Source: an uncultured Acidobacteriota bacterium (GTDB lineage: Bacteria > Acidobacteriota > Thermoanaerobaculia > Multivoradales > UBA5704). Taken from it: a stretch of DNA of 64,000 nt. The position numbers and the translations under genes are program-made. The stretch spans positions 704,481 to 768,480 of the forward strand of contig CAVYRF010000001.1 in assembly GCA_963770895.1 (NCBI GenBank), in the 5' to 3' direction. Below the pieces are notes generated by a model that worked only from the letters and a program-made list of their open reading frames with translations, did not search any database and was not told the DNA's origin. Of this stretch, positions 3,725 to 51,786 are shown one piece after another (the stretch's first letter is position 1; the number at the start of each line of letters is the position of its first letter).

Positions 3725-3766
3725 AGGTCCAGCGTTGGTATCTCGGGCGGGTCGCTGGACCGCGCA

Positions 3767-4108
3767 TCATCTCCGCGGCAGCACATCCAATCCCACCAGC
3801 ACCCGTTCCGTCTGTGACAGGTCGCCGATGATCTTGCGCATCGGCGCCGGCAGCTTCCTTACCAGGGTCGGGATCGCCAGGATCTGGTCCGCCCGCGCCA
3901 GGTGCGGGTTGGCCATGAGGTCGATCACCTCGACCCGATATCTCCCTGCAAGATGCTCGCCGCAGATCTTTTTGAGGTTGCTGAGCGCCGCCATTGAGCG
4001 CGGGGTCTGGCCGGCGACGTAGAGCCGCAGGTCCCAGGTTCCCTCCTCCTGCTCGGGCGGGAGCGATGGAGGCGATGGAGACGAGGTGGTCTGGTCGTGG
4101 TTGCTCAT
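3767..4108 (-). CDS. kaiB: circadian clock protein KaiB (thioredoxin-like fold)
   Basis: 113 aa starting at internal ATG 4108 of ORF 3767..4930. The sequence [72 protein letters not shown] is classic KaiB. Its ATG overlaps the kaiC stop (ATGA at 4105-4108). Confidence 0.9.
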
Positions 4109-5892: not shown

Positions 5893-5909
5893 GGCGTTGG
5901 TCTGGCGCC

Positions 5910-7796: not shown

Positions 7797-7897
7797 CAAC
7801 CGGGTTGGAGCAGTCGATCGCGCGCGCCGGCGCCGGCGCGGCTGCCGGCACCCCGGTGCAGTATTATAGTGCCACCTTACAGCCGCCAAACGAATCG

Positions 7898-8572: not shown

Positions 8573-8669
8573 TGAGCGCGCGGCGCGCAGTGGGCGATAC
8601 GCCAGGCCGGCGCGGGCAGTGGGCGATGACGGGCCGGATGCCGCGCCAACCGGGAAGGAGGCAGTGCCG

Positions 8670-19221: not shown

Positions 19222-20052
19222 TCATGACGCGAAGATCGCGCTGATCTCGCGCGGGCTGGCGGCCTCCTCGGCATAGGTGAAGGTGCCGTGCTCGCGCATC
19301 TCGCGCGCGGCGCGCAGGAAGGCGCCCAGCGCGGCGCGCGCCAGCGAGCTGCCGATGCTGATCCGCCGCACCCCCATCTCCGCCAGGGCGGCCTGGCTCA
19401 GCTGCACGCCGCGCAGCCCCATCACCACGTTGACCGGCCGGTCCACCGAGCTGATCACCGCCGCGATGTCTTCCCTGGTCGCCAGGCCCGGCGCATACAG
19501 CACGTCGGCGCCCGCCTCCTGGTAGGCCTGCAAGCGGGCAATCGTGTCCTTGATGTCCGGACGGCCGTGCAGGTAATTTTCGGCACGGCCGGTCAGCATG
19601 AAGGGGACGGGGAGCGCCCGCGCCGCCTCCGCCGCGGCGCGCACCCGATCCGCCGCCAGCTCGCGCTCATAGATCGGACTGTCGGCGCGCCCCGTCGCGT
19701 CCTCGATCGAACCGCCGACCACGCCCGCGGCCGCCGCCAGCCGGATCGTCTCGGCAGCCGCCTGGGGGCTGTCGCCGAAGCCGTTTTCCAGGTCGGCGCT
19801 CACCGGCAGATCGGTCGCGTACGCGATCTGCGCCAGGTGTTCCATGATCATTTCGCGGTCGACCGCGTTATCCAGCTTGCCGACCGAAAACGCGAAGCCC
19901 ATGCTGGTCGTAGCCAGCGCTTCGAAGCCAAGGTGGGCCAGCAGCCGCGCGCTGCCGATGTCCCAAGGATTGGGAATGATGAACGCCCCGGCGCGCTCAT
20001 GCAGCGCCCGAAACGCCTGTCCTTTTTCAACTTGCGAAGTCATCGTCGTCAC
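19222..20052 (-). CDS. isocitrate lyase / PEP mutase superfamily enzyme (2-methylisocitrate lyase-like)
   Basis: Signature lines are FIIPNPWDIGSARLL, PVSADLENGFG, GGSIEDA and YAPG. The start is either GTG 20052 or ATG 20043. Confidence 0.85.
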   Translation of the reverse strand: MTTMTSQVEKGQAFRALHERAGAFIIPNPWDIGSARLLAHLGFEALATTSMGFAFSVGKLDNAVDREMIMEHLAQIAYATDLPVSADLENGFGDSPQAAAETIRLAAAAGVVGGSIEDATGRADSPIYERELAADRVRAAAEAARALPVPFMLTGRAENYLHGRPDIKDTIARLQAYQEAGADVLYAPGLATREDIAAVISSVDRPVNVVMGLRGVQLSQAALAEMGVRRISIGSSLARAALGAFLRAAREMREHGTFTYAEEAASPREISAIFAS

Positions 20053-20239: not shown

Positions 20240-20620
20240 GGTGGACCGGCGGGTCGGTCGGTTGGTCGATCGGGCGGCCGAGTGGACCGGTGGACTGTGT
20301 GGTGATCGGTCGGCGGGGCGGACCGGTGGGGCCGGTGGGTCAGTTGGCGATCGGTCGGCGGCTTGGATCGGGGGTCGATGGGTCAGGCGTGCAATCAGGG
20401 CGAAAAAGGTAGCGGGTCGAGGGGGAGGTCGGGTGGTGGACCGGTGCACCGGCGACGATGGTTCGGCGGAGGGGACCGGGCGGGTAAGTCGGTTGGCGAA
20501 GCGATGGAATGATGGGGCTGCGGCGGACCGTTGGGTCGGCCGGCGAAGGGTCGGCGGGGCAATGGAGCGTTGGGCAGGTGGGGTGGTGGGCAGGGGGTGT
20601 GGGATGTGAGTCTGGCCGAT
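20240..20620 (+). other. G-skewed degenerate-repeat intergenic tract with a G-quadruplex-type motif
   Basis: The plus strand is strongly G over C, with recurring GGTCGG, GGACCGGTGG and GATCGG words. GGGTGGTGGGCAGGGGGTGTGGG lies at 20581-20603. ORFs on both strands here have nonsense-like composition. Confidence 0.6.
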
Positions 20621-20637
20621 GGGATAAAATTGCCGCC

Positions 20638-21915
20638 ATGCAGCTTGCATTTCTCACGCTCTTTTTGGGCCTGGTCACAGGCTCGCTGCCGCTGTCGCTC
20701 ACCGCCGGCCCCGACGTCGCCAAGGTCGAGATCGTGCTGGACGGCGCTCCGGTTCAACGCCTGGCCGCGCCGCCCTGGAGCGGCAGGATCGACTTTGGCG
20801 CCGCGTTGCTGCCGCACCACCTGGAGGCGCGCGGCCTGGATGCCCAGGGGCGCGAGGTGGCGCACGCCGAGCAGTGGATCAACGTCCCGCGCGACCCCGC
20901 GGAAGCGCAGATCGTGGTCGAAAAAGCCCAGCCGGGCCAGCCTCGCACCATCCGTCTGGCCTGGCAGAGCATCACCAGCGACGCGCCCACCAAGGTGGCG
21001 CTCACCTTTGACGGCGCGCCGCTCGCCTTCGACAGCCAGTACCGCGCCGTCCTCCCCGCCCTCCACGGCACCGACACGCACGTCGTCGCGGCCGAGCTGC
21101 AATTTGCCGGCGGCGCCACGGCGCGCCACGCCGTCGCTCTCGGCGGCGAATATGACGACGCCGTCGCCAGCGACCTGACCGCGGTCCCCGTCTGGATCGC
21201 GCCGCGCGCCGAGCTGCCGCCGCTCGCCAGCCTGCAGGGGTGGTTTGCCGAAGAGGGCCGCCCGCTCCAGGTGCAGGCTGCCGACGCTGCCGCGCCCTGG
21301 CTCCTCACCGTGCGCGACGCCGCGGCCATGAAACTGCTCCGCCTCAGTTGGATGGCCCGCGACCGCTTCCGCTTCAAGCTGCCGCCGGGCAGCCGCATGC
21401 GCTTCATCTGGCCCCAGGCCAAGCGCCATGAAGCCTCGGGCCTGCCTTCCGAGATCTTCGACAGCAGCACCTACGCCATGGACGTGGCGCGCGACAGCAT
21501 CCCCTGGCTGCTCACCCGCGTCCAGCAGCCCGGCGCGGACCATCCCCGCCTGGCCGACGCCGCCGCCGCCTCAGGCCTGGCGCTGGCCGCCGCCGCCGGC
21601 CCCCGCGCCCTGATCGTCGTCCTGGATCCCGACACCAAGGACTACAGCCACCTCGACAGCGCCACCGTCCGCCGCTACCTGGAAGCCATCCACATCCCCC
21701 TGTTCGTGTGGGCAGTCGGCCCCCCCTCCGCCGACCTGACCGCCACCTGGGGCCACGTCACCAACATCTCCGTCGAATCCGGCATGGAATCCGCCTTCGC
21801 CGCCCTGCGCCAGGTCCTGGACCGCCAGCGCATCGTCTGGCTCGCCGGCCACCACCTTCCCCAACGCATCGCCCTGACCCCAGCCGCCGCCGGCCTCCAG
21901 CTCACCCCGCCCTGA
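20638..21915 (+). CDS. hypothetical secreted/membrane-anchored protein
   Basis: ATG 20638 is in frame with ORF 20509..21915. The N-terminus MQLAFLTLFLGLVTGSLPLSLTAG is signal-like and the composition is ordinary. I recognise no family motif. Confidence 0.65.
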   Translation: MQLAFLTLFLGLVTGSLPLSLTAGPDVAKVEIVLDGAPVQRLAAPPWSGRIDFGAALLPHHLEARGLDAQGREVAHAEQWINVPRDPAEAQIVVEKAQPGQPRTIRLAWQSITSDAPTKVALTFDGAPLAFDSQYRAVLPALHGTDTHVVAAELQFAGGATARHAVALGGEYDDAVASDLTAVPVWIAPRAELPPLASLQGWFAEEGRPLQVQAADAAAPWLLTVRDAAAMKLLRLSWMARDRFRFKLPPGSRMRFIWPQAKRHEASGLPSEIFDSSTYAMDVARDSIPWLLTRVQQPGADHPRLADAAAASGLALAAAAGPRALIVVLDPDTKDYSHLDSATVRRYLEAIHIPLFVWAVGPPSADLTATWGHVTNISVESGMESAFAALRQVLDRQRIVWLAGHHLPQRIALTPAAAGLQLTPP

Positions 21916-22103
21916 CGGCCCCCCGCCGGCGGCGTTCACCGGATCAGCAAGGTTTTTGCGCCCGGCGACCGCCCGCAGCGGGCGCATCGCGCGGCATGCG
22001 CCGGCGATTTAGCTTCTTCGCCGCGATTCATCGATCTGCATACTGCGATTCGATAGCGCCCCGCGGCCGCCCCGGTGGTCCGCCGGTCGGCACCTACTAG
22101 GGT

Positions 22104-25100
22104 GTGTCTGACAGCGAGCACCCTTTCGCCGCGCGCGGAGCTGGCGCGGCTCCGCAGGACCTCGCGCCGGCCGGCGATCTGGACGGCGGGGACGGCCGTG
22201 ACGCGATGCTGCGGGCGGCCGGGCCGGAAGAGCGGGCCGCCCTGGCGCTGGCCTGGCTGCGGCGCCAGGCGGCGGCCACCCTCGACCGGGACGCCGCGCA
22301 GCTCCCCGCGGACCGTTCGCTGGTGGCCCTGGGATTGGACTCGCTGGCGGCGGCCGAGCTCTCGGGCGCCGTCGAAAACATCCTGAAAGTGCCGCTCGGT
22401 GTAGCCGACCTCCTGGCCGGCGCCAGCCTCGCGGAGCTGGCCGGCGACATCGCCCGCAATCTCGATGAGGCTGCGGCGGCGTCGCACGCCGGCCAAGCCG
22501 GCGGTACGGTCCACGCCGGGGACGACGGCCGCCAGGTGGTCGTGCCGGAGCCCCACCGCGCCGGCGCGCCGCCCCCCGCCGCGCCGTCGCCCCGCACCGC
22601 CCTGTCGTGGGGCCAGCGCGCCCTGTGGCTGGTGGACCGCATGGCGCCGGGCAACCCGGCCTACATCCTGGCCGGCGCCGCGCACGTCGGGGTTGGCGCC
22701 GCGCGCGGCGGCGACCTCGACGTGGCGCGGTTGTGTCAGGCCATTACCGCCCTGGTCGCTCGCCATGCGGCCTTGCGCATGCGGTGCGAGCAGGGGAGCG
22801 ATGGAGAGGTGGTGCAGGTGGTGGGCGACCAGCCGCTGTTCGGCTGGCTTGAGGTGGATGCCGGCGTCCTGAGCGAGCAAGGGTTGCACGAGCTGGTGGC
22901 AGAGGAGGCTTGGCGGCCGTTCGACCTCGCCCGCGGGCCGCTGCTGCGAGTGGCTCTGTTCCGCGGTGGCGGCCGGGCGCCGCTGCTGGTGCTCGCGGTG
23001 CATCACATCGTCGCCGACTTCTGGTCGCTCGGCGTGATGATCGACCAGCTGGGTGCGCTCTACCAGGGGCGCCTCCTGGCGCCGCTCGCGGCGACGCATG
23101 GCGAGCACGCGCGGCGCCAGGCGGAGCGGTTGGCGGGACCCGAGGGGGAGGCCCTGGCGGCCTGGTGGCGCGCCGCGCTGCCGCCGGGGGCGCCGGCGCT
23201 CGAGCTGCCGACCGACCGGCCGCGGCCGCCGGTGCAGGGATTCCGCGGTGGCGCGCGGACGCGCTGGTGGGAGCGGGAGCTGGTAGGGGAGCTCGACCGG
23301 CTGGGCCGGCGGGCCGGGGCCACGCCGTTCATGACCCTGCTGGCCGCCTACATGACGCTGCTGCACCGCTACACCGGCCAGCCGGAGCTGCGGGTGGGGA
23401 CGCCAGCGTCCGGCCGTGGCGCGCCGGACCTCTCGGGCCTGGTGGGCTACTTCGTCAATCCGCTGGTGGTGCGCGGCGAGCTGGCCGGCAACCCCGGCTT
23501 CGAGCAGCTGCTGAGCCGGGTGCGGCAGGCCGTGCTCGCGGTGTTTGCCCACCAGGACTTCCCGTTTGCGCTGCTCGCCGAGCTGCTGGGCGGCGCCCGC
23601 GATCCCAGCCGGCCGCCGGTGTTCCAGGCGATGTTCGTGTTCTACAGCGAGCGGCGCGCCGGCGAGCGCGGGATGAGCGGTTTCGCGCTGGGCGAGGCGG
23701 GCGCGCGGCTCGATCTTGGCGGCCTCACGCTCGAATCGGTGCGGCTGCCGCGGCGCGGCGCGCAGGTCGATCTGACGTTGCTGGCGGCCGATCGCGACGA
23801 TCGCGACCAGCGCGCCGAGCGCGAGGGTGCGCGGGCGGTCTCGTTGCAGTTCGACAGCGTGCTCTTCGACGGCGCCACGGCGGAGCGGATGCTGGGTCAC
23901 CTGTGCGCGCTGGCCGCCGCCGCGGTCGCCGATCCGGGGTGCGGCATCCGCGACCTGCCGCTGCTCACCGCCGGCGAGCGCCAGCAGGTGGCGGAGTGGA
24001 ACGCCACCGCCGTCGCCTGGCCTGGCGACCTGCGCCTGCACCAGCTTTTCGAAGAGCAGGCGCGCCGCACCCCGGACGCGGTGGCCGTGGTGGTCGACGC
24101 CGCTACCGACGCCGACGCCGACGCCGACGCTGATACCGGCGCCGACACCGCCGGCGCCGGGTCCCGTCGCGGCCCCGCACCGCCGGCGGCCGGCCGCGCG
24201 GTGGCTTCCGCCGCGTGCTGGACCTACCGCGGCCTCGACCGGCGCGCCGACCGGCTGGCGCGAAGGCTGCGGCAGGCCGGCGTCGGGCCGGAATCCGTGG
24301 TGGCGATCCTGGCCGAGCGCTCGGCCGCCATGGTCGCCGGCCTGCTCGCCATCCTCAAGGCGGGCGGCGCCTACCTGCCGCTCGATCCCGACCACCCCGC
24401 CGAGCGCCTGCGCCAGATGCTGCACGACTCAGGCGCCGGCGTGCTCCTGGCACAGCGCCGGCTGCTGCCGCGGCTGGGCGAGCCGGACGCGCCGCCTGTC
24501 GTCGCGGCCGCGGTGCTGGTGCTCGACGATCCCGACCGGGACGATTCCGCCCAGGACGAGCAGGACGATCCCGCCACCGGCGGTGCCGCGTTCGGCGCTG
24601 CCGCTCTTGCGCTGGCGCCCGACGGCCGGCCGGAGCGTGCGCCGCCGCCGCTGGAGCGCGCCGTCCACCCGGATAGCCTGGCGTACGTGATCTATACCTC
24701 GGGCTCGACCGGCCGGCCCAAAGGCACCATGAACACGCACCGGGGCATCGTCAACCGGCTGCTCTGGATGCAGCAGCAGTACCGATTGGCGGCCGACGAC
24801 CGGGTGTTGCAGAAGACGCCGCTGTCCTTCGACGTGTCGGTCTGGGAGCTGTTCTGGCCGCTCGCGACGGGGGCGTGCCTGGTGATGGCCCGTCCGGGCG
24901 GGCACCGCGACAGCGGCTACCTGCTGGCGGCGCTGGCGGCGCACCAGATCACCACCGTGCATTTCGTGCCGGCGATGCTGAGCGATCTTCTCGCGGCCCT
25001 GCCGCCGCGGGGCGATGCAAGCTCGGGCGCCGGCCCGTGGGACGCCGCGCCGGCAGGGCTGCGCCGGGTCGTGGCAAGCGGCGAGGCGCTGCCCTACGGT

Positions 25101-28100
25101 CTCCAGCAGCGCTATTACGCGGCGCTCGCGGCGCCGCTGCACAACCTCTACGGCCCTACCGAAGCCGCGGTCGACGTCACCCATTGGGCGACCGACCCGG
25201 ACGCCGATCGGCGGCTGGTGCCGATCGGGCGGCCGGTGGCCAACACCTGGATCCGGCTGGTCGACCGCCAGGGCGGGCTGGTGCCGATCGGTGTACCGGG
25301 CGAGCTGTGCATCGGCGGCGTGCAGCTGGCGCGCGGCTACCTGGGCCGCCCGGCGCTGACCGCCGAAAGGTTCGTGCCCGATCCGCTGGGCGACGCGGCA
25401 GGAGCGCGCCTCTACCGCACCGGCGACCTGGCGCGCTACCTGCCGGACGGTGCCATCGACTACCTGGGCCGCCTGGACCACCAGGTGAAGATCCGCGGCG
25501 TGCGCATCGAGCTCGGCGAGATCGAAGCTGCCCTGCTGCGCCATCCGGCCGTGCGCGAAGCGGTCGTCACCGTGGCCGCCGTGGCGGACCACGCCTCGCC
25601 GGCCGGCGCCGACCCGCGGCTGGCGGCCTACCTGGTGACGCGCGGGGCGGCCGCGCCGCCGCGGGCGGGAGAGCCGGCGGCTGGGGAGCCGGCCGCGCCG
25701 CCTGCTGCGCCGGCCGCCGCGCCGCCGTCCGACCTGGCCGACGACCTCCGCCGCCTGCTGCGTCAGAGCCTGCCGGAGGCGATGATCCCGGCGGCCTTCG
25801 TGGTGCTGCCCGCGCTGCCGCTGTCGGCCAACGGCAAGGTGGACCGCCGGGCGCTGCCGGCGCCGCGGTGGGGCGCCGCCGCGGTCGCGGGCACGCCGCC
25901 GCGCACTGCCGACCAGGAGATCCTGGCCGGCCTGTTCGCGGAGCTGCTGGGGCTCACGGTCGCTGGCGACCGCAGCGGCGACAGCAGCGGCAACGGCGGC
26001 AGCAGAGCTAGCGGCGACAGCAGCGACGACGGCGAAAGCAGCGGCAACGGCGGAAGCAGCGGCAACGGCGGAAGCAGAGGCAGCGTCGACAGCGGAGGCA
26101 GCGGCGCCGCGGCCGGCGGGTGGGTGGCTGGAACACAGGGGGGCGAAGCCGCGGACGCGCGCGGCGTCGCGGCGGCGAGCGGTGGGGAGCAAGGCGGCGG
26201 CCTTGGCATCGACCAGAGTTTTTTCGATCTCGGCGGCCATTCGCTGCTGGCGACCCGCCTGCTGGCGCGGGTGCGCCAGGTGTTCGCGGTGGAGCTGCCG
26301 CTGCGGCAGGTGTTCGAGGCGCCGACGGTGGCCAGGCTCGCCGCGGCGATCGCGGCGGCGCGGCGGGGCGACCTGGCGGCGGCGCCGCCGCTCGTGCCGC
26401 TGCCGCCCGCGGCTCGCCAGGGGCCGCTGGCGCTCAGCTTCGCGCAGGAGCGCATGTGGTTTCTCGACCAGCTGGAGGGCGGCGGTGCCACCTACAACAT
26501 GCCCGGCGTGCTGCGCCTCGCGGGCCCGCTGCAGGTGGCGGCGCTGCGCGCCGGGCTGGCGGAGGTGTGCCGCCGCCACGAGGTGCTGCGCACGACGTTC
26601 ACCGTGCGCGATGGCGCCGCGGGGCCGGTCGCCCGCGTCGCCCGGCCGGCCGCCGCTCCGGGGCCGCCGCTGCCGCTGGTGGATCTGTCCGGGCTGGCGG
26701 CCGGCTGCCGACAGGCGGTCGCCTCGCGGCTCGCCGCCCTGGAGGCGCGGCGCCCGTTCGACCTCGTCGCGGGCCCCGTGCTGCGCGCCGTGCTGCTGCG
26801 CCTGAGCGGCGGGCCGCCCGCGGCGGCGCAGGCGCTCCACCTGCTGCTGCTCACGCTGCACCACATCGCCGCCGATGCCGAGTCGGTCGAGGTGCTGGCG
26901 CGCGAGCTGGCCGCCCTCTATACCGCGGGTGCGACCGGCAGGCCGCCAGACGCGGCGGCGCTGCCGCCGCTCCCCGTCCAGTATGCCGACTTCGCCGCCT
27001 GGCAGCGGGCGGCGCTCAGCGGCGACCGGCGCGCGGCCGAGGTGGCTTTCTGGCGCGAGCAGCTTGCCGGCGCGCGCGGCGCACCGCCGGTGCTCGAGCT
27101 GCCCTGCGATCGGCCGCGCGGCACGGTGAGCGGCCGGCGCGGGGCGCGGCGCCCCGTGGTGCTGCCCGCCGCGCTGGCCGGCAGGCTCGCGGCGGTGGCG
27201 CGGGACCACCGCGCCACCCTGTTCATCGCCTTGCTGGCGGCCTTCGACACCCTGCTGGGCCGTTACGGCGGCCAGGACGACGTCGCGGTGGGCGTGCCGG
27301 TCGCCAATCGCGACCGCGCCCAGATCCAGCCGCTGATCGGGCTGTTCGTCAACACGCTGGTGCTGCGCCTCGACCTGTCGGGCGACCCCACCTTTGGCGA
27401 GCTCCTGGGGCGCGCGCGGCAGACGGCGCTGGCCGCCTACGGCCACCAGGAGATGCCGTTCGAGCAGCTGGTCGCCCACCTGCAGCCGCGGCGCGCAGCG
27501 GGCGAAAGCCCGTTCTTCCAGGTGGTCCTGGCGCTCCAGCCCGGCCTGGCGGCGCCGGCGATGGCGGGCCTGGCGGTCGAGCTCGCCCCCGGCGACACCG
27601 GCACCGCCAAGTTCGACCTGTCTTTGGCGCTCGACGTCGCGCCCGACGGCAGCCTTGCCGGCACCTGGACCTGGCGCGCCGGCCTGTTCGACCCGGCGAC
27701 GATCGAGCGGCTTTCGGTGCAGCTGCGGCAGCTGCTCGCGGCGGTCGCCGCGGGCGAACCGGGACCGGCGGGCCGCCTCTCCGAGCTGCCGCTGCTCGGC
27801 CCGGCCGAGCGCCACCAGCTGCAGCGGGAATGGAACGACGTCTGGCAGCCGGGCGGCGGCGACCTGCTGCATGCGGCGTTCGAGCGGCGGGCGGCGCAGG
27901 TGCCCGACGCGGTGGCGGCGGTGGAGGCCGGCCACGACGGCCTGATGGGGCGCAGCCTCACCTACGGCGAGCTGGCGGCGCGCGCCGGCCGGCTGGCGTG
28001 CCGGCTGGCGGCGCTGGGAGTCGCGCCGGAGCGGATCGTCGGCGTCTCGCTCCCGCCGTCGCTCGACCTGCTGGTGGCGCTGCTCGGCATCCTCAAGGCG

Positions 28101-31100
28101 GGCGGCGCCTACCTGGCGCTCGATCCGGCGCAGCCGCGGGAGCGCCGGGCGCAGATCCTGGCCGAGTCGTCGGCACTCCTGGTCGTCGCCGCGAGTCCTG
28201 CGGCGCCCACCGCTCCGGTTACCGCCGCCACCGCCGCCGCCTCCTCCTCCGTCATCGCGGCCACCACCGCCGCCGCCGCCGCGCGCCCGTCCGCGGTCGA
28301 GGGCCTGATGCTGCTCGGCCCGGACGGGCGCGCGGCGGCGCTGGGCGCCGCGGCCGGCGCCACCCCCCGGCGCACCCCGTTCCCCCCGGCCCCGGATCCG
28401 GACCCCGACAACGCCGCCTACGTCCTCTACACCTCCGGCTCCGGCGGCGCGCCCAAGGGCGTCGTGGTCAGCCATCGCGCCGTCGTCAACCGTCTGCGCT
28501 ACCAGGTTGCCGCCGACCTCGCGCCCGACTCGCGGGTGCTGCAACGGGCGCGCCTCGCCTTCGACGTCTCGGTGCTGGAGCTGTTCGCGCCGCTCTGGGC
28601 GGGCGCCGCGGTGGTGCTGATCGATGCCGCCCGCCAGCAGGACGCCGGCTACCTGGCCCGCGTCGTGGCCGCGCAGCAGGTCACCAACTTCAACGCGCCG
28701 CCGGCGTTGCTCCCGGCCCTGCTGGCCGAAGACGAGCTCCGCCGCTGCCGCGCGCTGCGCCGCGTGGTGCTGGGCGGCGAGCGGGTGCCGGTCGACCTCG
28801 CTCACCGATTCGCGACGATGATGGCGGCTGGGCCTGGGGCGGCGCCGTTGCTGCTGTCGCGCTACGGTCCGACCGAGGCCACCATCTCGGTGACCGAATG
28901 GCACTGCCGCCCCGCGCCGGCCGCGCCTGCCGGTTCGGCCGGACCGCTCGGCTGGCCGATCGCCGGCGCTCGCCTCCACCTGCTGGACCGCCATGGCCGC
29001 GAGGTGCCGCCCTCGGCTCCGGGCGAGCTCTGCATCGGCGGCATCTGCCTGGCGCGCGCCTATCTCGCCCGGCCCGACCTGACCGCCGCGGCGTTCATCC
29101 CGGACCCCTTCGCGGCGCCGGGCGAAGAGGCGGGCAGCCGCCTCTACCGCACCGGCGACCTGGCGCGCCGGCGCGCCGGCGGCGAGCTGGAATTCCTCGG
29201 CCGCATCGACCGCCAGGTCAAGATCCGCGGCTTCCGCGTCGAGCTGGGCGACGTCGAGGCGGCGCTCGCCCGCCACCCCGGTGTGCGCGAAACGGCGGTG
29301 GTGGACCGCGACGAGCCGGCGACCGGCGGCAGGCGCCTGGTGGCCTACGTGGTGCCCCGCCAGGCGGATGCCGGCGGGCTCGAGCCGCAGGCGCTACGGT
29401 CTTTCGTCGCGGAGCACCTGCCGCCCTACATGCTGCCCGCCGCCTGGGTCCTGCTGGACTGCCTGCCGCTCACCGCCAACGGCAAGCTGGACCGGCGGGC
29501 GCTGCCCGAGCCGGCCGACCTGTCGCCGGCGGCGGACGCGGCGGAGCCGGCTGCGCTGGACGGGGCGAGCGGCCGCCGCGGCGCCGCCCCCCGCACCCCG
29601 GCCGAAGAGCTGCTGGCGGGGATCTGGTGCCAGCTCCTGGGCGTCCGGCAGGTATCCATCGGGGACGACTTTTTTCACCTGGGCGGCCATTCGCTGCTCG
29701 CCACCCAGCTGGTGTCCCGGCTGAGCGCGACGCTGGCGGTCGACCTTCCCCTGGCCAAGGTTTTCGAGCACCCCACCCTGGCGGCGATGGCGTCGGCGAT
29801 CGAGCAGGCGCGCGGCCTGGGCGGCGCGGAGCCCACCGTCGCCGGGCTCGCCGGCCGTCTGACGCCGGCGCACGAAGCCGGCGGCGGCGCCGGCCGGGGC
29901 GACGGCGCGCGGCCGGTGCCGCTACCGCTCCTGCCGCGGCAGGCGGGCGGCGCCGCGGCGCAGCTGCCGCTGTCGTTTGCCCAGCAGCGGCTCTGGTTCC
30001 TGGACCGCCTGGCGCCCGGCTCGCCGGCCTACAACATGCCGCTGGCGGTGCGGCTCTCCGGCGACCTGGACATCCCCGCCCTGGCTGCCGGCGTCGCCGC
30101 CCTGGTGGCGCGGCACGAGACCCTGCGCACCACCTTCCACGAGACCGCGGGCGAGCCCTGGCAGCGGATCGCGCCGCCGCTCGCCGCCGGTGCCAGCTCC
30201 GGCGCCGGCGCCGGCGCGGCCGCCACAAGCGCGCTGCCGGTCGTCGACCTGCGGGCGCTGGTGGACGCCGGTGAACCGGACGGCGAGCCGGGCGGTGGGC
30301 CGGGGCTGGATGCCGGCTGGCCAGGTCAGCCGGATGGTTTCGCGCCGCTGCCGCTGCCGCGGCGCGCGCTCGCCGCGGCGCTCGACCTGGCCGCGGCCGC
30401 GGCGCGGCGGCCCTTCGACCTGGCGCGCGGCCCGCTCTTCCGGCCCCTCCTGCTGCGGTTGACCGGGCGCGAGCACCTCTGGCTGGGGACCATGCACCAC
30501 ATCGTCTCCGACGGCTGGTCGCTGGGCGTCCTGGTGCGCGAGCTGACCGCCGTCTACGCCGCGCTGGCGGCCGGCCGGGAGCCCCGTCTGCCGGCCCTGC
30601 CGGTGCAGTACGCCGACTACGCCGCCTGGCAGCGCCAGCGCCTGTCCGGCGACCTCTTGGCGGCGCAGATCGCCCACTGGCGCGAGCGCCTGGCGGGCCT
30701 GCCGGCGCGGCTCGACCTGCCGGTGGACCGGCCGCGCCCGGCCGTCGAAACCGTCGCCGGCGCCCAGCGGCGCTGGCGCCTGGCCGGCGACGTGGCCGGC
30801 CGGCTGCGCCAGCTGGCGGCAGCGTCGGGGGCGACCCCGTTCATGGTCCTGGTCGCCGCCTTCCAGGCGCTCCTGGGGCGCTGGTCCGGTCAACAGGACC
30901 TGGCGGTTGGCACGCCGATCGCCGGCCGCAACCGCATCGAGATCGAAGGCCTGATCGGCTTCTTCGTCAACACCCTGGTGCTGCGCGCCGATCTCTCCAG
31001 CGGGCCGCGGCGCCTGGCGTTCGACCAGCTGCTGGCCCGCACCCGCGAGGCGACCCTGGCCGCGTACGCCCATCAGGAGCTGCCGTTCGAACGGCTGGTC

Positions 31101-34100
31101 GAAGAGCTGGCCCTGCCCCGCGACCTCGCCTCGACGCCGCTGTTTCAAGTCATGTTCGCGCTGCAGAACGCGCCCGCGGGGGGCCTCGAGCTGCCGGGCC
31201 TCCGCCTGGCGCCCGTCGCGGTCGGCTCGCGCACCGCCAAGTTCGACCTCACCCTGTCGCTGTCCGAATCCGCCGCGTTCGCTGCTGCGCTCGCACCGGC
31301 GCCGGACCAGGCGGCAACCTTTGCCGGCTGGCTCGAATACAAGACCGACCTGTTCGACGGCGCCACCGCCGAGCGCCTGCTGGACCACTTCGCCGCCCTG
31401 CTCGAGCGCGTCACCGCCGACCCCTCGGCGCCGCTCGCGGACCTCGACCTGCTGGGCGCCGCCCAGCGCCACCAGCTGCTCGTGGAATGGGGGCACGGCC
31501 CGGCGCTCGATACCGCCGGCGCGGCCGTCACCCTCGACCAGTATTTCGAAGCCTCCGTCGACCGCGCCCCCGACGCGGTGGCGCTGGTCTGCGAGCACGC
31601 CAGCCTCACCTACGGTCAGCTCGACCGGCGGGCCAACCGCCTCGCCCATCACCTGCGCCGCCTGGGAGTCGGGCCGGAGACCCCCGTCGCCCTCTGCCTC
31701 GAACGCTCGCTCGACATGGTGGTCGCCATCCTCGCCATCGTCAAGGCAGGAGGCGCCTACGTGCCGCTAGACCCCAGCTATCCGCAAGAGCGCCTGCGTT
31801 TCATCGCCGCCGACGCCCTGGCCGCCGCCAGGCGTCCGGTCCTGGTCACCCGCAGCGGCCTCGCCGGCCGCTTCGTCCGTCTACTGGGTGGGGGCGGTGG
31901 GGAAGGGGAGGGGGTCGGGACCGCCAGCACGCCCTTCCAGCTGGTCCTGGTCGACGCCCACCAGCGGCGCATCGCCCGCGCCCGCGCCAGCGCCCGCCGC
32001 CCGCGCGCCGGCGTGCCGTCCGCCGGTCTGGCCTATGTCATCTATACCTCCGGCTCGACCGGCCGCCCCAAGGGGACGATGAACACCCACCGCGGCATCC
32101 TCAACCGCGTGCTATGGATGCAGGGCGCCCACCCCCTGACCCCCGGCGACCGGGTGATGCAGAAGACCCCCATGTCCTTCGACGTCTCGGTGGGCGAGCT
32201 CTTCTGGCCCCTGCTGGCCGGAGGCTGCCTGGTCCTGGCCCGCCCCGAGGGGCACAAGGACGCCGCCTACCTGGTGCGCCTGGTCTGCGAGCAGGCCATC
32301 TCCATCCTGCACTTCGTGCCGGCCCTGCTCGACCTCTTCCTCGACCAGCCGCAGGTGGCGCAATGCCGCAGCATGCGCCAGCTGGTGGTGGGCGGCGAAG
32401 TGCTCTCGGCCGAGCTGCGAGACCGCTTTCGGGCTCGCCTCCCGCACTGCGAGCTGCACAACCACTACGGCCCCACGGAAGCCGCCATCGACGTTTCGGC
32501 GTGGACCTGCCGGCACGCCGGCGAGCAGGCGCCGGTGCCCATCGGCCGGCCGGTCGCCAACACCTGGCTCTACGTCCTCGACCGCGACCTGCGCCCGCTG
32601 CCGGCGGGGGTGCCCGGCGAGCTGCTCATCGGCGGCGTCCAGCTCGCCCGCGGCTACCTCGGGCGCCCCGACCTGACCGCCGAGCGCTTTGTCCCCGACG
32701 CCTGGAGCGCCGGCGGGCGCCTCTACCGCACCGGCGACCTTGCCCGCCACCGGTCGGACGGCGCCCTGGAATACCTCGGCCGCCTGGACCACCAGGTGAA
32801 GCTGCGCGGCTTCCGCATCGAGCTCGGCGAGATCGAGACGGTGCTCGCCGGACACCCGGCCGTGCGCCAGGCAGCGGTGCTCCTGGTGGATGCGCCGCCG
32901 GCAGGCGCTCAGCTGGTGGCCTGCGTGGTGGCACAACCGGGCGCCGGCACCGGCGCCGAGGCTGCCGCGATCTGGCCGGAGCTGCGCGCCTTCCTCGCCG
33001 CGCGGCTGCCCGACCACATGGTGCCGGCGGCGGTGGTCTGGAGCGCGGCGCTGCCCACCACGCCCAACGGCAAGATCGACCGCCGCGTCCTCACACAGCA
33101 GGCCGCCGACGCCGCGGCGGCGGTACGCGGCACCGCCCTGCCTGCCGCCGCCCCGCCCCGCGATGCCGTCGAAGCCGCCCTGACCGCGATCTGGTCCGAG
33201 ATCCTGGGCCGCGGCACGCTCGACCGCGACGACAACTTCTTCGACCTGGGCGGCCACTCGCTGCTCGCCGTCCGCCTGATGGCCAGGATTCGCCAGCGCT
33301 TCGGCCGCGAGCTGCCCCTGCAGACCCTGTTCCGCGCTGCCACCGTGGGGCAACAGGCGGCGTTGCTGCGAGCCGGCGCGGCGACCGCCGGCCGCTCCAT
33401 CCTGGTCGAGCTGACCCCCATGGCCAGCACCGCCGCCAACGCCGGCACCTCCACCAGCGCCGGCACGCCCACCAACGCCGGCACCTCCGCCGACGCCGGC
33501 ACCTCCGTCAAGGCTGGCAGCCCCGCCGCATCGGAGCCCGCAGCCCGCCCGTTCTTCTGCGTCCACCCCGCCGGCGGCAACGTCCTCTGCTACGCCGAGC
33601 TGGCGCGGTCGCTGGGAGCGGACCAACCCTTCTACGGCCTGCAACTGCCCGACCTGCGAGACCTGCCGCCCGACGCCACGGTCGAGGCGCTCGCCTCCCG
33701 CTACGTGACCGCCCTTCAAGCCGTGGCCCCCAACGGTCCCTATGCCCTGGGCGGCTGGTCGCTCGGCGGAGCCATCGCCTACGAGATGGCCCATCAGCTG
33801 CGCCTGGCCGGCGAACAGGTCGACCTGCTGGCCCTGATCGACCCCTCGCCGCTTTCCGTCACCCACCCGCAGTCGCCGGAACCGGAAGATCCTGAAACCT
33901 CGGCCGCAAGTCCGGCGACGACTGCCAGTGCCGGGATGCCGGCTGCGGAACCGGAAGATGGGAACCACGGCGCCGACGCGCAGCTCGCCGCCGCCTTTGC
34001 CTACGACCTGGCCGCCCTGAGCGGCCACGACGCTGCGCAGCTGGCCGCGGCGCACGCGTCGCTGCACCTCGATCCAACCCGCCCGCTGCCCGACCTGCTG

Positions 34101-34448
34101 GCGGCCGGCCGCGCCGCCGGCCTGCTGCCAGCCGACCTGGCAACCGACGACGTGGAGCGGCTCTTTGACCTCTTCCGTACGACCTGGCAAGCCTTCCGCC
34201 GCTATCGCCCCGAGCCCTACCCAGGCCGCCTAACCCTCCTGCGTGCCGCCCACCGCCGATCGTCCGCCAACGGCCATCCGCCGACAGAGCCCGCCGCCGC
34301 CTGGGCCGCGCTAGCCCGCCAAGGCGCCGACATCGAAACCCTGGCCGGCGACCACTACTCGATCGTCCGCCCACCCGCCGTCGATCGCCTGGCCCAAGCC
34401 CTCCGCCGCCGTCTGACCGCAACCAGCCGCGGCTCCGGCCCCAAGTGA
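22104..34448 (+). CDS. non-ribosomal peptide synthetase, T-C-A-T-C-A-T-C-A-T-TE
   Basis: 4114 aa with a GTG start at 22104. Carrier serines are at 22341 (LGLDSL), 26241, 29691 and 33258 (all GGHSL). C-domain HHxxxD motifs are at 23001, 26859 and 30495. A-domain cores YTSGSTGRPKG are near 24690 and 32045, with YTSGSGGAPKG near 28430. A10 motifs are NGKVDRRAL, NGKLDRRAL and NGKIDRRVL. The TE GWSLGG serine is at 33759. I recognised no E, MT or reductase domain. Confidence 0.97.
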   Translation: MSDSEHPFAARGAGAAPQDLAPAGDLDGGDGRDAMLRAAGPEERAALALAWLRRQAAATLDRDAAQLPADRSLVALGLDSLAAAELSGAVENILKVPLGVADLLAGASLAELAGDIARNLDEAAAASHAGQAGGTVHAGDDGRQVVVPEPHRAGAPPPAAPSPRTALSWGQRALWLVDRMAPGNPAYILAGAAHVGVGAARGGDLDVARLCQAITALVARHAALRMRCEQGSDGEVVQVVGDQPLFGWLEVDAGVLSEQGLHELVAEEAWRPFDLARGPLLRVALFRGGGRAPLLVLAVHHIVADFWSLGVMIDQLGALYQGRLLAPLAATHGEHARRQAERLAGPEGEALAAWWRAALPPGAPALELPTDRPRPPVQGFRGGARTRWWERELVGELDRLGRRAGATPFMTLLAAYMTLLHRYTGQPELRVGTPASGRGAPDLSGLVGYFVNPLVVRGELAGNPGFEQLLSRVRQAVLAVFAHQDFPFALLAELLGGARDPSRPPVFQAMFVFYSERRAGERGMSGFALGEAGARLDLGGLTLESVRLPRRGAQVDLTLLAADRDDRDQRAEREGARAVSLQFDSVLFDGATAERMLGHLCALAAAAVADPGCGIRDLPLLTAGERQQVAEWNATAVAWPGDLRLHQLFEEQARRTPDAVAVVVDAATDADADADADTGADTAGAGSRRGPAPPAAGRAVASAACWTYRGLDRRADRLARRLRQAGVGPESVVAILAERSAAMVAGLLAILKAGGAYLPLDPDHPAERLRQMLHDSGAGVLLAQRRLLPRLGEPDAPPVVAAAVLVLDDPDRDDSAQDEQDDPATGGAAFGAAALALAPDGRPERAPPPLERAVHPDSLAYVIYTSGSTGRPKGTMNTHRGIVNRLLWMQQQYRLAADDRVLQKTPLSFDVSVWELFWPLATGACLVMARPGGHRDSGYLLAALAAHQITTVHFVPAMLSDLLAALPPRGDASSGAGPWDAAPAGLRRVVASGEALPYGLQQRYYAALAAPLHNLYGPTEAAVDVTHWATDPDADRRLVPIGRPVANTWIRLVDRQGGLVPIGVPGELCIGGVQLARGYLGRPALTAERFVPDPLGDAAGARLYRTGDLARYLPDGAIDYLGRLDHQVKIRGVRIELGEIEAALLRHPAVREAVVTVAAVADHASPAGADPRLAAYLVTRGAAAPPRAGEPAAGEPAAPPAAPAAAPPSDLADDLRRLLRQSLPEAMIPAAFVVLPALPLSANGKVDRRALPAPRWGAAAVAGTPPRTADQEILAGLFAELLGLTVAGDRSGDSSGNGGSRASGDSSDDGESSGNGGSSGNGGSRGSVDSGGSGAAAGGWVAGTQGGEAADARGVAAASGGEQGGGLGIDQSFFDLGGHSLLATRLLARVRQVFAVELPLRQVFEAPTVARLAAAIAAARRGDLAAAPPLVPLPPAARQGPLALSFAQERMWFLDQLEGGGATYNMPGVLRLAGPLQVAALRAGLAEVCRRHEVLRTTFTVRDGAAGPVARVARPAAAPGPPLPLVDLSGLAAGCRQAVASRLAALEARRPFDLVAGPVLRAVLLRLSGGPPAAAQALHLLLLTLHHIAADAESVEVLARELAALYTAGATGRPPDAAALPPLPVQYADFAAWQRAALSGDRRAAEVAFWREQLAGARGAPPVLELPCDRPRGTVSGRRGARRPVVLPAALAGRLAAVARDHRATLFIALLAAFDTLLGRYGGQDDVAVGVPVANRDRAQIQPLIGLFVNTLVLRLDLSGDPTFGELLGRARQTALAAYGHQEMPFEQLVAHLQPRRAAGESPFFQVVLALQPGLAAPAMAGLAVELAPGDTGTAKFDLSLALDVAPDGSLAGTWTWRAGLFDPATIERLSVQLRQLLAAVAAGEPGPAGRLSELPLLGPAERHQLQREWNDVWQPGGGDLLHAAFERRAAQVPDAVAAVEAGHDGLMGRSLTYGELAARAGRLACRLAALGVAPERIVGVSLPPSLDLLVALLGILKAGGAYLALDPAQPRERRAQILAESSALLVVAASPAAPTAPVTAATAAASSSVIAATTAAAAARPSAVEGLMLLGPDGRAAALGAAAGATPRRTPFPPAPDPDPDNAAYVLYTSGSGGAPKGVVVSHRAVVNRLRYQVAADLAPDSRVLQRARLAFDVSVLELFAPLWAGAAVVLIDAARQQDAGYLARVVAAQQVTNFNAPPALLPALLAEDELRRCRALRRVVLGGERVPVDLAHRFATMMAAGPGAAPLLLSRYGPTEATISVTEWHCRPAPAAPAGSAGPLGWPIAGARLHLLDRHGREVPPSAPGELCIGGICLARAYLARPDLTAAAFIPDPFAAPGEEAGSRLYRTGDLARRRAGGELEFLGRIDRQVKIRGFRVELGDVEAALARHPGVRETAVVDRDEPATGGRRLVAYVVPRQADAGGLEPQALRSFVAEHLPPYMLPAAWVLLDCLPLTANGKLDRRALPEPADLSPAADAAEPAALDGASGRRGAAPRTPAEELLAGIWCQLLGVRQVSIGDDFFHLGGHSLLATQLVSRLSATLAVDLPLAKVFEHPTLAAMASAIEQARGLGGAEPTVAGLAGRLTPAHEAGGGAGRGDGARPVPLPLLPRQAGGAAAQLPLSFAQQRLWFLDRLAPGSPAYNMPLAVRLSGDLDIPALAAGVAALVARHETLRTTFHETAGEPWQRIAPPLAAGASSGAGAGAAATSALPVVDLRALVDAGEPDGEPGGGPGLDAGWPGQPDGFAPLPLPRRALAAALDLAAAAARRPFDLARGPLFRPLLLRLTGREHLWLGTMHHIVSDGWSLGVLVRELTAVYAALAAGREPRLPALPVQYADYAAWQRQRLSGDLLAAQIAHWRERLAGLPARLDLPVDRPRPAVETVAGAQRRWRLAGDVAGRLRQLAAASGATPFMVLVAAFQALLGRWSGQQDLAVGTPIAGRNRIEIEGLIGFFVNTLVLRADLSSGPRRLAFDQLLARTREATLAAYAHQELPFERLVEELALPRDLASTPLFQVMFALQNAPAGGLELPGLRLAPVAVGSRTAKFDLTLSLSESAAFAAALAPAPDQAATFAGWLEYKTDLFDGATAERLLDHFAALLERVTADPSAPLADLDLLGAAQRHQLLVEWGHGPALDTAGAAVTLDQYFEASVDRAPDAVALVCEHASLTYGQLDRRANRLAHHLRRLGVGPETPVALCLERSLDMVVAILAIVKAGGAYVPLDPSYPQERLRFIAADALAAARRPVLVTRSGLAGRFVRLLGGGGGEGEGVGTASTPFQLVLVDAHQRRIARARASARRPRAGVPSAGLAYVIYTSGSTGRPKGTMNTHRGILNRVLWMQGAHPLTPGDRVMQKTPMSFDVSVGELFWPLLAGGCLVLARPEGHKDAAYLVRLVCEQAISILHFVPALLDLFLDQPQVAQCRSMRQLVVGGEVLSAELRDRFRARLPHCELHNHYGPTEAAIDVSAWTCRHAGEQAPVPIGRPVANTWLYVLDRDLRPLPAGVPGELLIGGVQLARGYLGRPDLTAERFVPDAWSAGGRLYRTGDLARHRSDGALEYLGRLDHQVKLRGFRIELGEIETVLAGHPAVRQAAVLLVDAPPAGAQLVACVVAQPGAGTGAEAAAIWPELRAFLAARLPDHMVPAAVVWSAALPTTPNGKIDRRVLTQQAADAAAAVRGTALPAAAPPRDAVEAALTAIWSEILGRGTLDRDDNFFDLGGHSLLAVRLMARIRQRFGRELPLQTLFRAATVGQQAALLRAGAATAGRSILVELTPMASTAANAGTSTSAGTPTNAGTSADAGTSVKAGSPAASEPAARPFFCVHPAGGNVLCYAELARSLGADQPFYGLQLPDLRDLPPDATVEALASRYVTALQAVAPNGPYALGGWSLGGAIAYEMAHQLRLAGEQVDLLALIDPSPLSVTHPQSPEPEDPETSAASPATTASAGMPAAEPEDGNHGADAQLAAAFAYDLAALSGHDAAQLAAAHASLHLDPTRPLPDLLAAGRAAGLLPADLATDDVERLFDLFRTTWQAFRRYRPEPYPGRLTLLRAAHRRSSANGHPPTEPAAAWAALARQGADIETLAGDHYSIVRPPAVDRLAQALRRRLTATSRGSGPK
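25965..26200 (+). repeat. in-frame Ser/Gly/Asp low-complexity insertion with short tandem repeats inside NRPS carrier domain 1
   Basis: AGCAGCGGCAACGGCGG recurs at about 25983, 26037 and 26055. The peptide is GDRSGDSSGNGGSRASGDSSDDGESSGNGGSSGNGGSRGSVDSGGSG...GGEQGGG. It lies between EILAGLFAELLGL and GIDQSFFDLGGHSL. Confidence 0.7.
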
Positions 34449-35402: not shown

Positions 35403-36812
35403 TCAACCGGTGGGGCCGCCGGCGACGACCTGCCAGGCGGTCCTGAGGGCGTCGGGCAGGCCGTACAGGTCCATGGCGGTGATCAGCAGGGCGCTGGCCC
35501 AGCCGGCGCCGGTCAGCAGCCAACCGGTGCGCCAGGCGCCCATGCGCTGGCGCGAGGCGGTGAACCAGAGCAGCGGGAACATGGCGAAGGGCAGCTGCAG
35601 GGCCAGCACGACCTGGCTCAGGGTGAGCAGGTCGGTGACGCTGCGGTCGCCGTGCCAGGCGATGACTGCGACGGCGGGGACGATCGCGGCGCAGCGGGTG
35701 ATCAGGCGCCGCAGCCAGGGCGACAGGCGCCAGTGCATGAAGCCTTCCATCACCACCTGGCCCGCCAGGGTGCCGGTGATGGTGCTGCTCTGGCCGCTGG
35801 CAAGCAGGGCGATGGCAAAGAGCGCGCTGGCGGCGAAGGTGCCCAAGAGCGGCGCCAGGGTGAGGAAGGCGATGCGGATCCAATCGCTGTCGGGGCGGAA
35901 GGCGACGACCTGGCCGCCGGCCAGGGTGACGCTGGCCTTGCCGAAAAAGACGGTGGCCGCCAGGACCAGGATGGCGGCGTTGACCAGGAACGCGACGCCC
36001 AGCGCCGCGGTCGAATCCAGGGTGTTGAAGCGAATCGCCTGCCGCATGGAGGCCTTGTCGCGCTGCAGCCGCCGGCTCTGCACCAGCGCCGAATGCAGGT
36101 AGAGATTGTGCGGCATGACGGTGGCGCCGATGATGCCGATGGCGACGTAGAGCATACCGCGCTGGCGCAGGCCGGGCGCCGCCAGGGCGCGTCCCATCTC
36201 CAGGAACTGGGGCCGCGTCGCGGGGAGCACGAAGATCTCGGTGAAATAGCAGATGCCGATGGTCGCCACCAGGACCAGGACCACCGCTTCGATGGTGCGC
36301 ATGCCGAAGCGTTGCAGGCCGAGCAGCAGCAGGACGTCCAGGCCGGTGATCACCACGGCCCACAGCAGCGGCAGGTGAAACAGCAGGTTGATCGCCACGG
36401 CGCTGCCCAGCACCTCGGCCAGGTCGCAGGCGGCGATCGCCACTTCGCAGAACAGCCAGTTGGGCCAGCGGGTCCAGGGGGGGAGCCAGTCGCGGCTGCA
36501 CTGCGCCAGGTCCTTGCCGGTGACGACGCCCAGGCGGGCGGCGATGACCTGCAGGAAGATCGCCATGACGCTGGCCAGGGCGACGACCCACAGCAGGCCG
36601 TACTTGAACTGCGCGCCGCCCTGCAGGTCGGTGCCCCAATTGCCGGGATCCATGTAGCCGACGCTGACCAGCAGCGCCGGTCCCGCGAACGCCCGCCAGT
36701 GCCGCCAGAAGCCCTGGTCGGCGCGCGGCACCGCGACGCTCGAATGGACCTCCTGCAACGATTGCGTGGCGGAGGGCGCCGAGGCGGGGCTCATGTCGGA
36801 TGTTTTGAGCAC
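35403..36812 (-). CDS. mntH: Nramp-family divalent metal (Mn2+/Fe2+):proton symporter
   Basis: Signature lines are GPALLVSVGYMDPGNWGTDLQGGAQFKYGLLWVV and ATVMPHNLYLHSALV, with about 11 hydrophobic segments. The start is either GTG 36812 or ATG 36794. Confidence 0.92.
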   Translation of the reverse strand: MLKTSDMSPASAPSATQSLQEVHSSVAVPRADQGFWRHWRAFAGPALLVSVGYMDPGNWGTDLQGGAQFKYGLLWVVALASVMAIFLQVIAARLGVVTGKDLAQCSRDWLPPWTRWPNWLFCEVAIAACDLAEVLGSAVAINLLFHLPLLWAVVITGLDVLLLLGLQRFGMRTIEAVVLVLVATIGICYFTEIFVLPATRPQFLEMGRALAAPGLRQRGMLYVAIGIIGATVMPHNLYLHSALVQSRRLQRDKASMRQAIRFNTLDSTAALGVAFLVNAAILVLAATVFFGKASVTLAGGQVVAFRPDSDWIRIAFLTLAPLLGTFAASALFAIALLASGQSSTITGTLAGQVVMEGFMHWRLSPWLRRLITRCAAIVPAVAVIAWHGDRSVTDLLTLSQVVLALQLPFAMFPLLWFTASRQRMGAWRTGWLLTGAGWASALLITAMDLYGLPDALRTAWQVVAGGPTG

Positions 36813-37605: not shown

Positions 37606-38271
37606 TCAACCGGCGCTGCTGGCGTGGATGCGGCGGGCGGCGGCGGTGCCGACGACGACGGCCGGGTGGCCGGCGGCGCGCAGGGTCACGGCGTCGGCCA
37701 CCGGGTCCAGGCGCTCGACCACCACCTTGCGGCCCGGCACCAGGCCGTGCTCTTCGGCAAAGCGCAGAAACTGGCCGTCTTCGGATTCGACGCGCGCCAC
37801 CTGCACTTCGCACCCCGGCTCGTAGTCGGCCAGGGTGCGGACGCGCAGCTGGACGACTTCCCCCGCGGCGTCGGGGATCGGGTCGCCGTGCGGGTCGGCG
37901 GTGGGGAAGTCCAGCACTTCGTCGATCCGCCGCAGGACCTTTTCGGAAACCGCGTGCTCGAGCACTTCGGCTTCTTCGTGCACTTCGCTCCAGTCGAGGC
38001 CCAGCACCCGCACCAGGAACAGCTCCAGCAGGCGGTGGCGGCGCAGCACGTGCAGGGCGAGCTTTTCGCCGCTGCGCGTCAGCCGCACGCCGGTGCGCGG
38101 TTCGTAATAGACCAGGCGCGCTTCGTCGAGCGCCTTGACCATGCTGGTCACGGTGCCCGGCACGACTCCCATGAGGGTCGCCAGGCGGCCCAGCGGCACC
38201 AGGCGCTCGGGACAGCGCTGCTGTTCCATGTACAGGCGCTTGACGTAGTCCTCGACCGTGCTGGTGGGCAT
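37606..38271 (-). CDS. DtxR/IdeR/MntR-family metal-dependent transcriptional regulator with C-terminal FeoA/SH3-like domain
   Basis: 221 aa. Signature lines are EDYVKRLY, the HTH LATLMGVVPGTVTSMVKALDEARLV, the metal-site region HRLLELFL...EVHEEAEVLEH, and a C-terminal SH3-like part. Confidence 0.88.
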   Translation of the reverse strand: MPTSTVEDYVKRLYMEQQRCPERLVPLGRLATLMGVVPGTVTSMVKALDEARLVYYEPRTGVRLTRSGEKLALHVLRRHRLLELFLVRVLGLDWSEVHEEAEVLEHAVSEKVLRRIDEVLDFPTADPHGDPIPDAAGEVVQLRVRTLADYEPGCEVQVARVESEDGQFLRFAEEHGLVPGRKVVVERLDPVADAVTLRAAGHPAVVVGTAAARRIHASSAG

Positions 38272-50385: not shown

Positions 50386-50387
50386 CG

Positions 50388-51785: not shown

Positions 51786-51786
51786 A

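Follow-up and report, generated by a model that had tools for sequence, protein, structure and literature searches.

The 64,000-nucleotide stretch analyzed here (contig CAVYRF010000001.1 of assembly GCA_963770895.1, positions 704,481 to 768,480; hereafter the window) carries a nonribosomal peptide synthetase (NRPS) gene at 22104-34448 on the + strand. Its 4114-amino-acid (aa) product has the order T0-C1-A1-T1-C2-A2-T2-C3-A3-T3-TE (T, carrier; C, condensation; A, adenylation; TE, thioesterase). We propose that an unlinked fatty acyl-AMP ligase (FAAL) probably acylates the N-terminal carrier T0, that C1 N-acylates Ser and that, after two elongations, the TE frees an N-acyl-Ser-X-Y lipotripeptide. 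The synthetase, which comes from an uncultured acidobacterium of soil type, is most likely lipopeptide machinery of an ordinary kind, in an unusual split layout that recurs in Thermoanaerobaculia.

Domain borders were derived from Pfam matches of the whole NRPS protein and of ten slices of it. The whole protein gave four PP-binding, three AMP-binding (each with AMP-binding_C), three Condensation and one Thioesterase matches. Epimerization (E), methyltransferase (MT) or reductase (R) domains were found neither in the whole 4114-aa protein nor in the slices, and the residues outside the domains form low-complexity linkers, so that there is no room for such domains. A first-pass annotation, made by a model from the sequence alone, had read the same order, with an LGLDSL carrier Ser (22341) ahead of the first C domain, a GWSLGG thioesterase and no E, MT or R domain, and this layout was borne out. 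The hallmarks of a modular type I NRPS were observed: three PF00501 plus PF13193 pairs, the carrier Ser residues, HHxxxD motifs at residues 300 (C1), 1586 (C2) and 2798 (C3), and the TE GxSxG, with C2 devoid of the motif Gly. The open reading frame (ORF) shows the codon-position pattern of a genuine gene (G+C of 0.92 at third vs. 0.56 at second positions) in a window of 69-78% G+C, and an exact look-up of the protein found no record.

The specificity codes of the three A domains (Table 1) were extracted by aligning these domains with a GrsA PheA fragment in MAFFT, for which the canonical DAWTIAAICK was recovered as control, and they are identical to those aligned by hand in the first-pass annotation. 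The A1 code differs at one of 10 positions from DVWHFSLVDK, which a published table (PMC11586506) gives as Ser by antiSMASH. The A1 residue is predicted to be Ser, in keeping with the earlier reading of the first in-line residue. A full-text literature search matched no paper to the A1, A2 or A3 code. The A3 code is only loosely like those for Orn/Dab (DVGEIGSIDK) with His for the acidic residue, and no assignment was made; the A2 code has Arg at position 7 and was assigned no substrate.

No loader for T0 was detected in the window. A tblastn search of the whole 64 kb with the FAAL domains of four homologues matched only the three in-line A domains (24.3-25.5, 28.4-29.5 and 31.6-33.1 kb). Six-frame motif scans of the window revealed no MbtH or Sfp-type phosphopantetheinyl transferase signature in a coding frame, and Pfam and NCBIfam searches with the window's large ORFs and those supported by third-position G+C revealed no adenylating enzyme outside the NRPS. 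The earlier statement that the window lacks a stand-alone adenylating, FAAL or MbtH-like gene was therefore confirmed. The gene upstream (20509-21915, 468 aa) encodes a membrane-anchored product with no family match. A hidden A domain or FAAL in this ORF or in the 189-bp gap was considered and rejected, because no Pfam, NCBIfam or tblastn match was obtained.

The best NCBIfam match of the T0-C1 region is PRK05691, which we take to be the model of PvdL-type synthetases, and the matched model positions (676-1155) correspond to the C domain that follows an N-terminal ligase and carrier. Homologues were then sought among 5.8 billion proteins. The best ones (49-56% identical), from metagenome-assembled genomes (MAGs) of Thermoanaerobaculia/Acidobacteriota, begin with Met, a short leader and a carrier. 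Homologues with the order FAAL-acyl carrier protein (ACP)-C-A, with PF23024 and the KTSSGKIQR ligase motif, are 38-47% identical over about 90% of T0-C1. A scan of one genome per GTDB species yielded 80 loci, which were classified together with five fetched earlier and are cited below by their L numbers. The best of the 80 is only 56% identical, hence the source species is not among the GTDB representatives. In 35 loci an in-frame FAAL directly precedes ACP-C. The retrieved flanks contain no FAAL in the window and its closest clade (L001, L002, L004, L006-L012), nor in L005/L040, L029 and L032, all of which are carrier-first. L003 begins with a carrier as well, but its upstream gene is a FAAL-containing NRPS. 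In the remaining loci the region starts with a C domain or is internal. Two of the clusters hold further megasynthases. L004 contains a second, divergent carrier-first NRPS-polyketide synthase (PKS) at 1-6180 (- strand). In L003 the upstream protein (1-7483, + strand) has the order FAAL-T-C-A-T-C-A-T with a C-terminal helical tail and no TE, and downstream of its gene come a MacB transporter and the carrier-first gene.

T0 itself is homologous to the carriers that partner FAALs. It shares 32-50% identity (E 1e-9 to 1e-19) with eight FAAL-fused ACPs, but no more than 32% (E of at least 1e-5) with T1 and T3 of its own synthetase, and T2 gave no reported match. A FAAL fused or adjacent to the carrier was found neither in the 64 kb nor in the flanks of the closest relatives. 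The GLDSL motif is invariant in 11 of 11 carrier-first homologues (the window and ten others, 41-60% identical overall), as are about a dozen further T0 columns. The retention of GLDSL argues that T0 is not a relic.

C1 was compared with 216 C domains extracted from all loci in a neighbor-joining (NJ) tree. It falls in a 57-member clade that takes in every one of the 16 carrier-first C domains and 19 of the 21 post-FAAL ones, but none of the 71 internal (post-A-T) ones. In this clade Phe follows the catalytic Asp, vs. Gly in 64 of the 71 internal domains. Among 120 homologues the first-C motif is HHxxxD followed by Phe or Leu and then Trp-Ser, where Gly-Trp-Ser is usual, and it holds after FAAL-ACP, after an N-terminal ACP and in C domains that start a protein. 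The nearest neighbors of C2 and C3 in the tree are mostly internal C domains, the others being unclassified by the context labels. On this basis C1 is classified as an initiation-type C domain of the clade found after FAAL-ACP. The carrier-first relatives nearest to the window nest as a subclade among the FAAL-fused ones, which indicates that the ligase was lost or split off.

Stand-alone FAALs of 600-650 aa proved abundant in the lineage when the FAAL of L013, the closest fused relative, and next a stand-alone one were used as queries. They form a tight orthogroup: 44 listed clusters are at least 73% identical to the query, and four members compared pairwise are 81-87% identical. In all six loci inspected (L086-L091) two divergently oriented TonB_C genes lie upstream of the FAAL; ApeI/ApeP genes are nearby in 4 of 6, with MMPL and a lipid A acyltransferase in two of those and a Trp-halogenase-like flavoenzyme gene in three. 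In L090 (MAG GCA_036521795.1, which also contains L003) the FAAL stop codon overlaps the start of a carrier-first NRPS as ATGA, so that the two are translationally coupled; this NRPS has a T0 with LGLDSL and a C1 (HHLVADFWS) 47% identical to that of the window. In MAG GCA_035308185.1 the FAAL (L087) does not share a contig with any of four carrier-first NRPS genes (L006, L009, L010 and L032), and in assembly ERZ26871208 the same holds for the FAAL (L091) and L001, the closest relative of the window. With the 35 fused loci, fused, split-adjacent and unlinked FAALs thus all occur within one family.

These data suggest that (i) the starter is loaded in trans, as the first-pass annotation had proposed, given the FAAL-fused ACP-C homology, the initiation-only clade of C1 and the co-occurring stand-alone FAALs; (ii) the cap, judged from these homologies, can be narrowed to a fatty acyl group delivered by a FAAL; and (iii) of the two products envisaged earlier, the N-capped tripeptide is favored and the tetrapeptide, with an amino acid on T0, is disfavored.

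In the model the loading module would be split, with the acyl carrier T0 and the acyl-accepting C1 still fused to the synthetase. A stand-alone FAAL, which we infer to exist in the source genome, would adenylate a fatty acid and transfer it to the phosphopantetheine arm on Ser80 of T0. C1 would then move the acyl group onto Ser loaded on T1 by A1, and C2 and C3 would add two further L-amino acids chosen by A2 and A3. The TE would free the product, an N-acyl-Ser-X-Y lipotripeptide, through hydrolysis, or through cyclization where a nucleophile is provided by the acyl chain or by Ser. A FAAL and an ACP feeding the first C domain are an established lipoinitiation route (PMC11586506).

An extension of this model is that in this Thermoanaerobaculia lineage one highly conserved stand-alone FAAL, at its fixed position beside two TonB_C genes, is a shared hub that charges the N-terminal carriers of several unlinked carrier-first NRPS or NRPS-PKS paralogues dispersed over the genome, four of them in one MAG. 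We regard it as conceivable and put it forward tentatively; if true, initiation would follow a one-loader, many-assembly-lines logic and would not be cluster-encoded. More unusual still would be the charging of T0 by a so far undescribed route that does not involve a FAAL.

Several observations weigh against trans-acylation of T0 by a FAAL. No FAAL was found for the source genome: none by tblastn in the window, and none of the best 120 matches to the stand-alone FAAL lies on a contig as long as that of the window (2,243,495 bp). The unusually high conservation and fixed gene context of the stand-alone FAAL leave room for another primary role, and its main job may be in an aryl-polyene-like lipid pathway. 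ERZ26871208 is possibly a metagenome assembly and not one genome. The clade assignment of C1 comes from a single NJ tree without bootstrap, with context labels set by regular expressions. In phmmer searches of the PDB, C1 is nearest to the elongation-type Txo1/Txo2 (E about 1e-70) and reaches the solved first C domain of PvdL with only E about 1e-26; among starter C domains, SrfA-A scored E 5e-11 and CDA C1 E 2e-9, and RzmA was not among the matches at E of 1e-5 or below. By these scores C1 is not a classical starter C (Cs) domain. Finally, C2 reads HHIAADAES (window 26859-26885, aa 1586-1594) in place of HHxxxDG(W)S. Its nearest relative among the C domains, found in L004, reads HHIAGDGGS, so that the DAES variant is private to the window protein; it may affect activity, and it leaves the second condensation in some doubt.

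The alternative that survives best is that T0 is bypassed, with C1 taking an acyl-CoA or an acyl-ACP of primary metabolism directly, in the manner of surfactin-type starter C domains, and T0 left over from the loss of the FAAL. Direct use of acyl-CoA by starter C domains is established (PMC11586506, PMC10510592), a fused FAAL was clearly lost in the window's clade, and C-first members are present in the clade of C1 itself. We nevertheless consider it unlikely, because T0 is under purifying selection and its attachment Ser is kept in 11 of 11 homologues, unlike a decaying relic.

Four carriers face three A domains, and no other loader is present within 64 kb. A1 might then load both T0 and T1 with Ser, and C1 join the two, to give an uncapped tetrapeptide Ser-Ser-X-Y. 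One A domain serves several carriers in yersiniabactin and fungal siderophore synthetases, and by sequence C1 is like ordinary peptide-bond-forming C domains in the PDB. This alternative is quite unlikely, however, since T0 is an ACP-type LGLDSL carrier with FAAL-partner homology, unlike the GGHSL carriers served by their own A domains, the C1 clade never occupies internal, peptide-elongating positions, and the FAAL of one relative is translationally coupled to the same T-C start.

T0 could also be an aryl carrier charged by a stand-alone DhbE/MbtA-type ligase, the product being an aryl-capped Ser metallophore under the nearby DtxR-family repressor. Synthetases of aryl-capped siderophores are typically carrier-first with Ser or Thr as first residue (MbtB, PchE, HMWP2). 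In its favor are the Ser code of A1, the Nramp transporter and DtxR-family regulator found 1-4 kb downstream, and the TonB_C genes that flank the stand-alone FAAL of the lineage. We find this very unlikely, because Pfam, NCBIfam and tblastn searches of the window ORFs revealed no isochorismate or dihydroxybenzoate genes, aryl-acid ligase, heterocyclization (Cy) domain or N-hydroxylase, and the ligases to which T0-C1 homologues are fused are FAALs and not of the aryl type. C1 has HHxxxD and not DxxxxD, so that only the A1 code agrees with an aryl-capped synthetase, and the Mn-dependent (JGI) cluster-mate of the DtxR protein and the Nramp/MntH-type neighbor fit manganese homeostasis.

That the NRPS is a downstream subunit of a larger assembly line, with T0 taking the chain from a synthetase encoded elsewhere, would agree with the carrier-first gene 3' of a TE-less FAAL-T-C-A-T-C-A-T synthetase in L003 and with the two carrier-first megasynthases in one cluster of L004, but it is highly improbable, as there is no second synthetase in the 64-kb window, no NRPS-type adenylating domain in the complete 10 kb that precede the carrier-first gene in L001, L002, L006 and L009 (upstream gene content was annotated for L001, L002 and L006), and, to our knowledge, no precedent for carrier-to-carrier hand-over without a catalytic domain.

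The proposed lipoinitiation was compared with known systems. In PvdL-type synthetases (FAAL-T-C-A fused; pyoverdine synthetase, PRK05691) the ACP-C-A order is that of the window NRPS, and about 35 relatives are fused in this way; in contrast, neither the window protein nor the whole window has a FAAL domain, and the similarity of the first C domains is moderate (E about 1e-26). PvdL also lacks a TE and feeds other subunits. In mycobacteria (FadD32-Pks13, FadD26-PpsA), a free-standing FAAL loads an ACP at the N terminus of a megasynthase, which is the logic proposed here; the acceptors, however, are PKSs with a ketosynthase and not a C domain after the ACP, and the FadD gene adjoins that of the PKS. 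MbtB, PchE and HMWP2 are likewise carrier-first, depend on a stand-alone adenylating enzyme for loading in trans and often have Ser, Thr or Cys first, but they use Cy (DxxxxD) domains and aryl-acid ligases, whereas C1 has HHxxxD and FAAL-linked relatives. In the daptomycin/ramoplanin type, a stand-alone FAAL (DptE) and a stand-alone ACP (DptF) feed the first C domain of DptA (PMC11586506). There, as in our model, the FAAL works in trans and the first C domain receives the acyl group from an acyl-carrier thioester; the window system differs in that its carrier is fused to the synthetase, the FAAL would be outside the gene cluster, and C1 is not near the classical starter C domains.

Should the model prove correct, the window would encode the synthetase of an N-acyl tripeptide from an Acidobacteriota class known almost only from metagenomes. 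Cluster-based genome mining can then miss the initiation enzyme, because the FAAL is unlinked, and a carrier-first synthetase with a free-standing FAAL would be a convenient site to swap lipid starters in engineering. The mechanism, in which a FAAL loads an ACP and the first C domain N-acylates, is already established, and the window system would be a tidy variant of it, unsurprising to specialists.

Table 1. Coordinates of the NRPS gene, its domains and associated features in the window
Feature	Position	Strand	Description
NRPS gene	22104..34448	+	4114 aa; T0-C1-A1-T1-C2-A2-T2-C3-A3-T3-TE
T0, N-terminal ACP-like carrier	22254..22445	+	aa 51-114; Ser80 codon 22341-22343 in LGLDSL; Pfam PP-binding E 2e-11
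C1, predicted initiation-type condensation domain	22602..23987	+	aa 167-628; active site HHIVADFWS; Pfam
A1 adenylation domain	24210..25838	+	aa 703-1245; code DVWHVSLVDK; predicted Ser
18-nt tandem repeat, 7.5 copies	25972..26106	+	in-frame; codes Gly/Ser/Asn-rich A1-T1 linker
T1 carrier	26202..26351	+	aa 1367-1416; GGHSL, Ser1380
C2 elongation condensation domain	26418..27821	+	aa 1439-1906; atypical active site HHIAADAES
A2 adenylation domain	27879..29486	+	aa 1926-2461; code DVLNVGRISK
T2 carrier	29610..29801	+	aa 2503-2566; Ser2530
C3 elongation condensation domain	29919..31481	+	aa about 2606-3126; canonical HHIVSDGWS; ~65-aa insertion
A3 adenylation domain	31545..33074	+	aa 3148-3657; code DVGHVGHIDK
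T3 carrier	33177..33368	+	aa 3692-3755; Ser3719
18-nt tandem repeat, 5.8 copies	33423-33527	+	in-frame; codes Ala/Gly/Thr/Ser-rich T3-TE linker
Type I thioesterase (TE)	33549..34406	+	aa 3816-4101; GWSLGG at 3884, Ser3886; C-terminal GDHYS His; PF00975 E 6e-32
Intergenic region, presumed promoter	21916..22103	.	AT-richer than surroundings; upstream gene ends 21915

The intergenic region in front of the NRPS gene contains an imperfect direct repeat (GATTCATCGAT ... GATTCGATAG), and consensus scans of it detected no sigma-70 consensus, terminator or obvious DtxR/IdeR-type palindrome. A convergent Usp gene, an Nramp transporter, a glyoxalase and a DtxR-family regulator lie downstream of the NRPS. 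Since the Usp gene is convergent, the NRPS looks like a single-gene unit, in a non-biosynthetic neighborhood. Further upstream, a PEP_mutase-family gene (19222-20052) was considered as a phosphonate link and rejected; it is devoid of the EDK motif and scores far under every equivalog cut-off (PEP mutase, PrpB), and was therefore treated as unrelated to the NRPS.

Manganese is a recurring theme in the window. A fragment of an MnxG-like multicopper oxidase (1-1047, - strand) is at the window edge, the Nramp/MntH-type transporter and the DtxR-family regulator are at 35403-36812 and 37606-38271 (both - strand), and a cluster-mate of the DtxR protein with 90% identity is named Mn-dependent by JGI. 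The manganese genes that adjoin the NRPS are probably unrelated to it.

Two tandem PhyH-family dioxygenase genes are at about 7650-9482 (+ strand). A homologous tandem pair (61% and 51% identity) is present in L006 (4546-6110), 4-5.5 kb upstream of the carrier-first NRPS and accompanied by DAO, cupin and AraC genes. Conserved neighbors were considered as loader candidates and rejected: only the PhyH pair is shared, with this one relative, and it was discounted because in the window it is 12.6 kb from the NRPS, behind unrelated respiratory genes.

Three B12-binding radical S-adenosylmethionine (SAM) enzymes and one SPASM-domain radical SAM enzyme are encoded in a run at 46896-53367 (- strand), and a further B12-binding radical SAM gene is at 38522-40816 (+ strand). 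The run could be a cluster for a ribosomally synthesized and post-translationally modified peptide or for lipid modification, and cluster-mates of two of the window's radical SAM proteins are named BchE-like cyclases by JGI.

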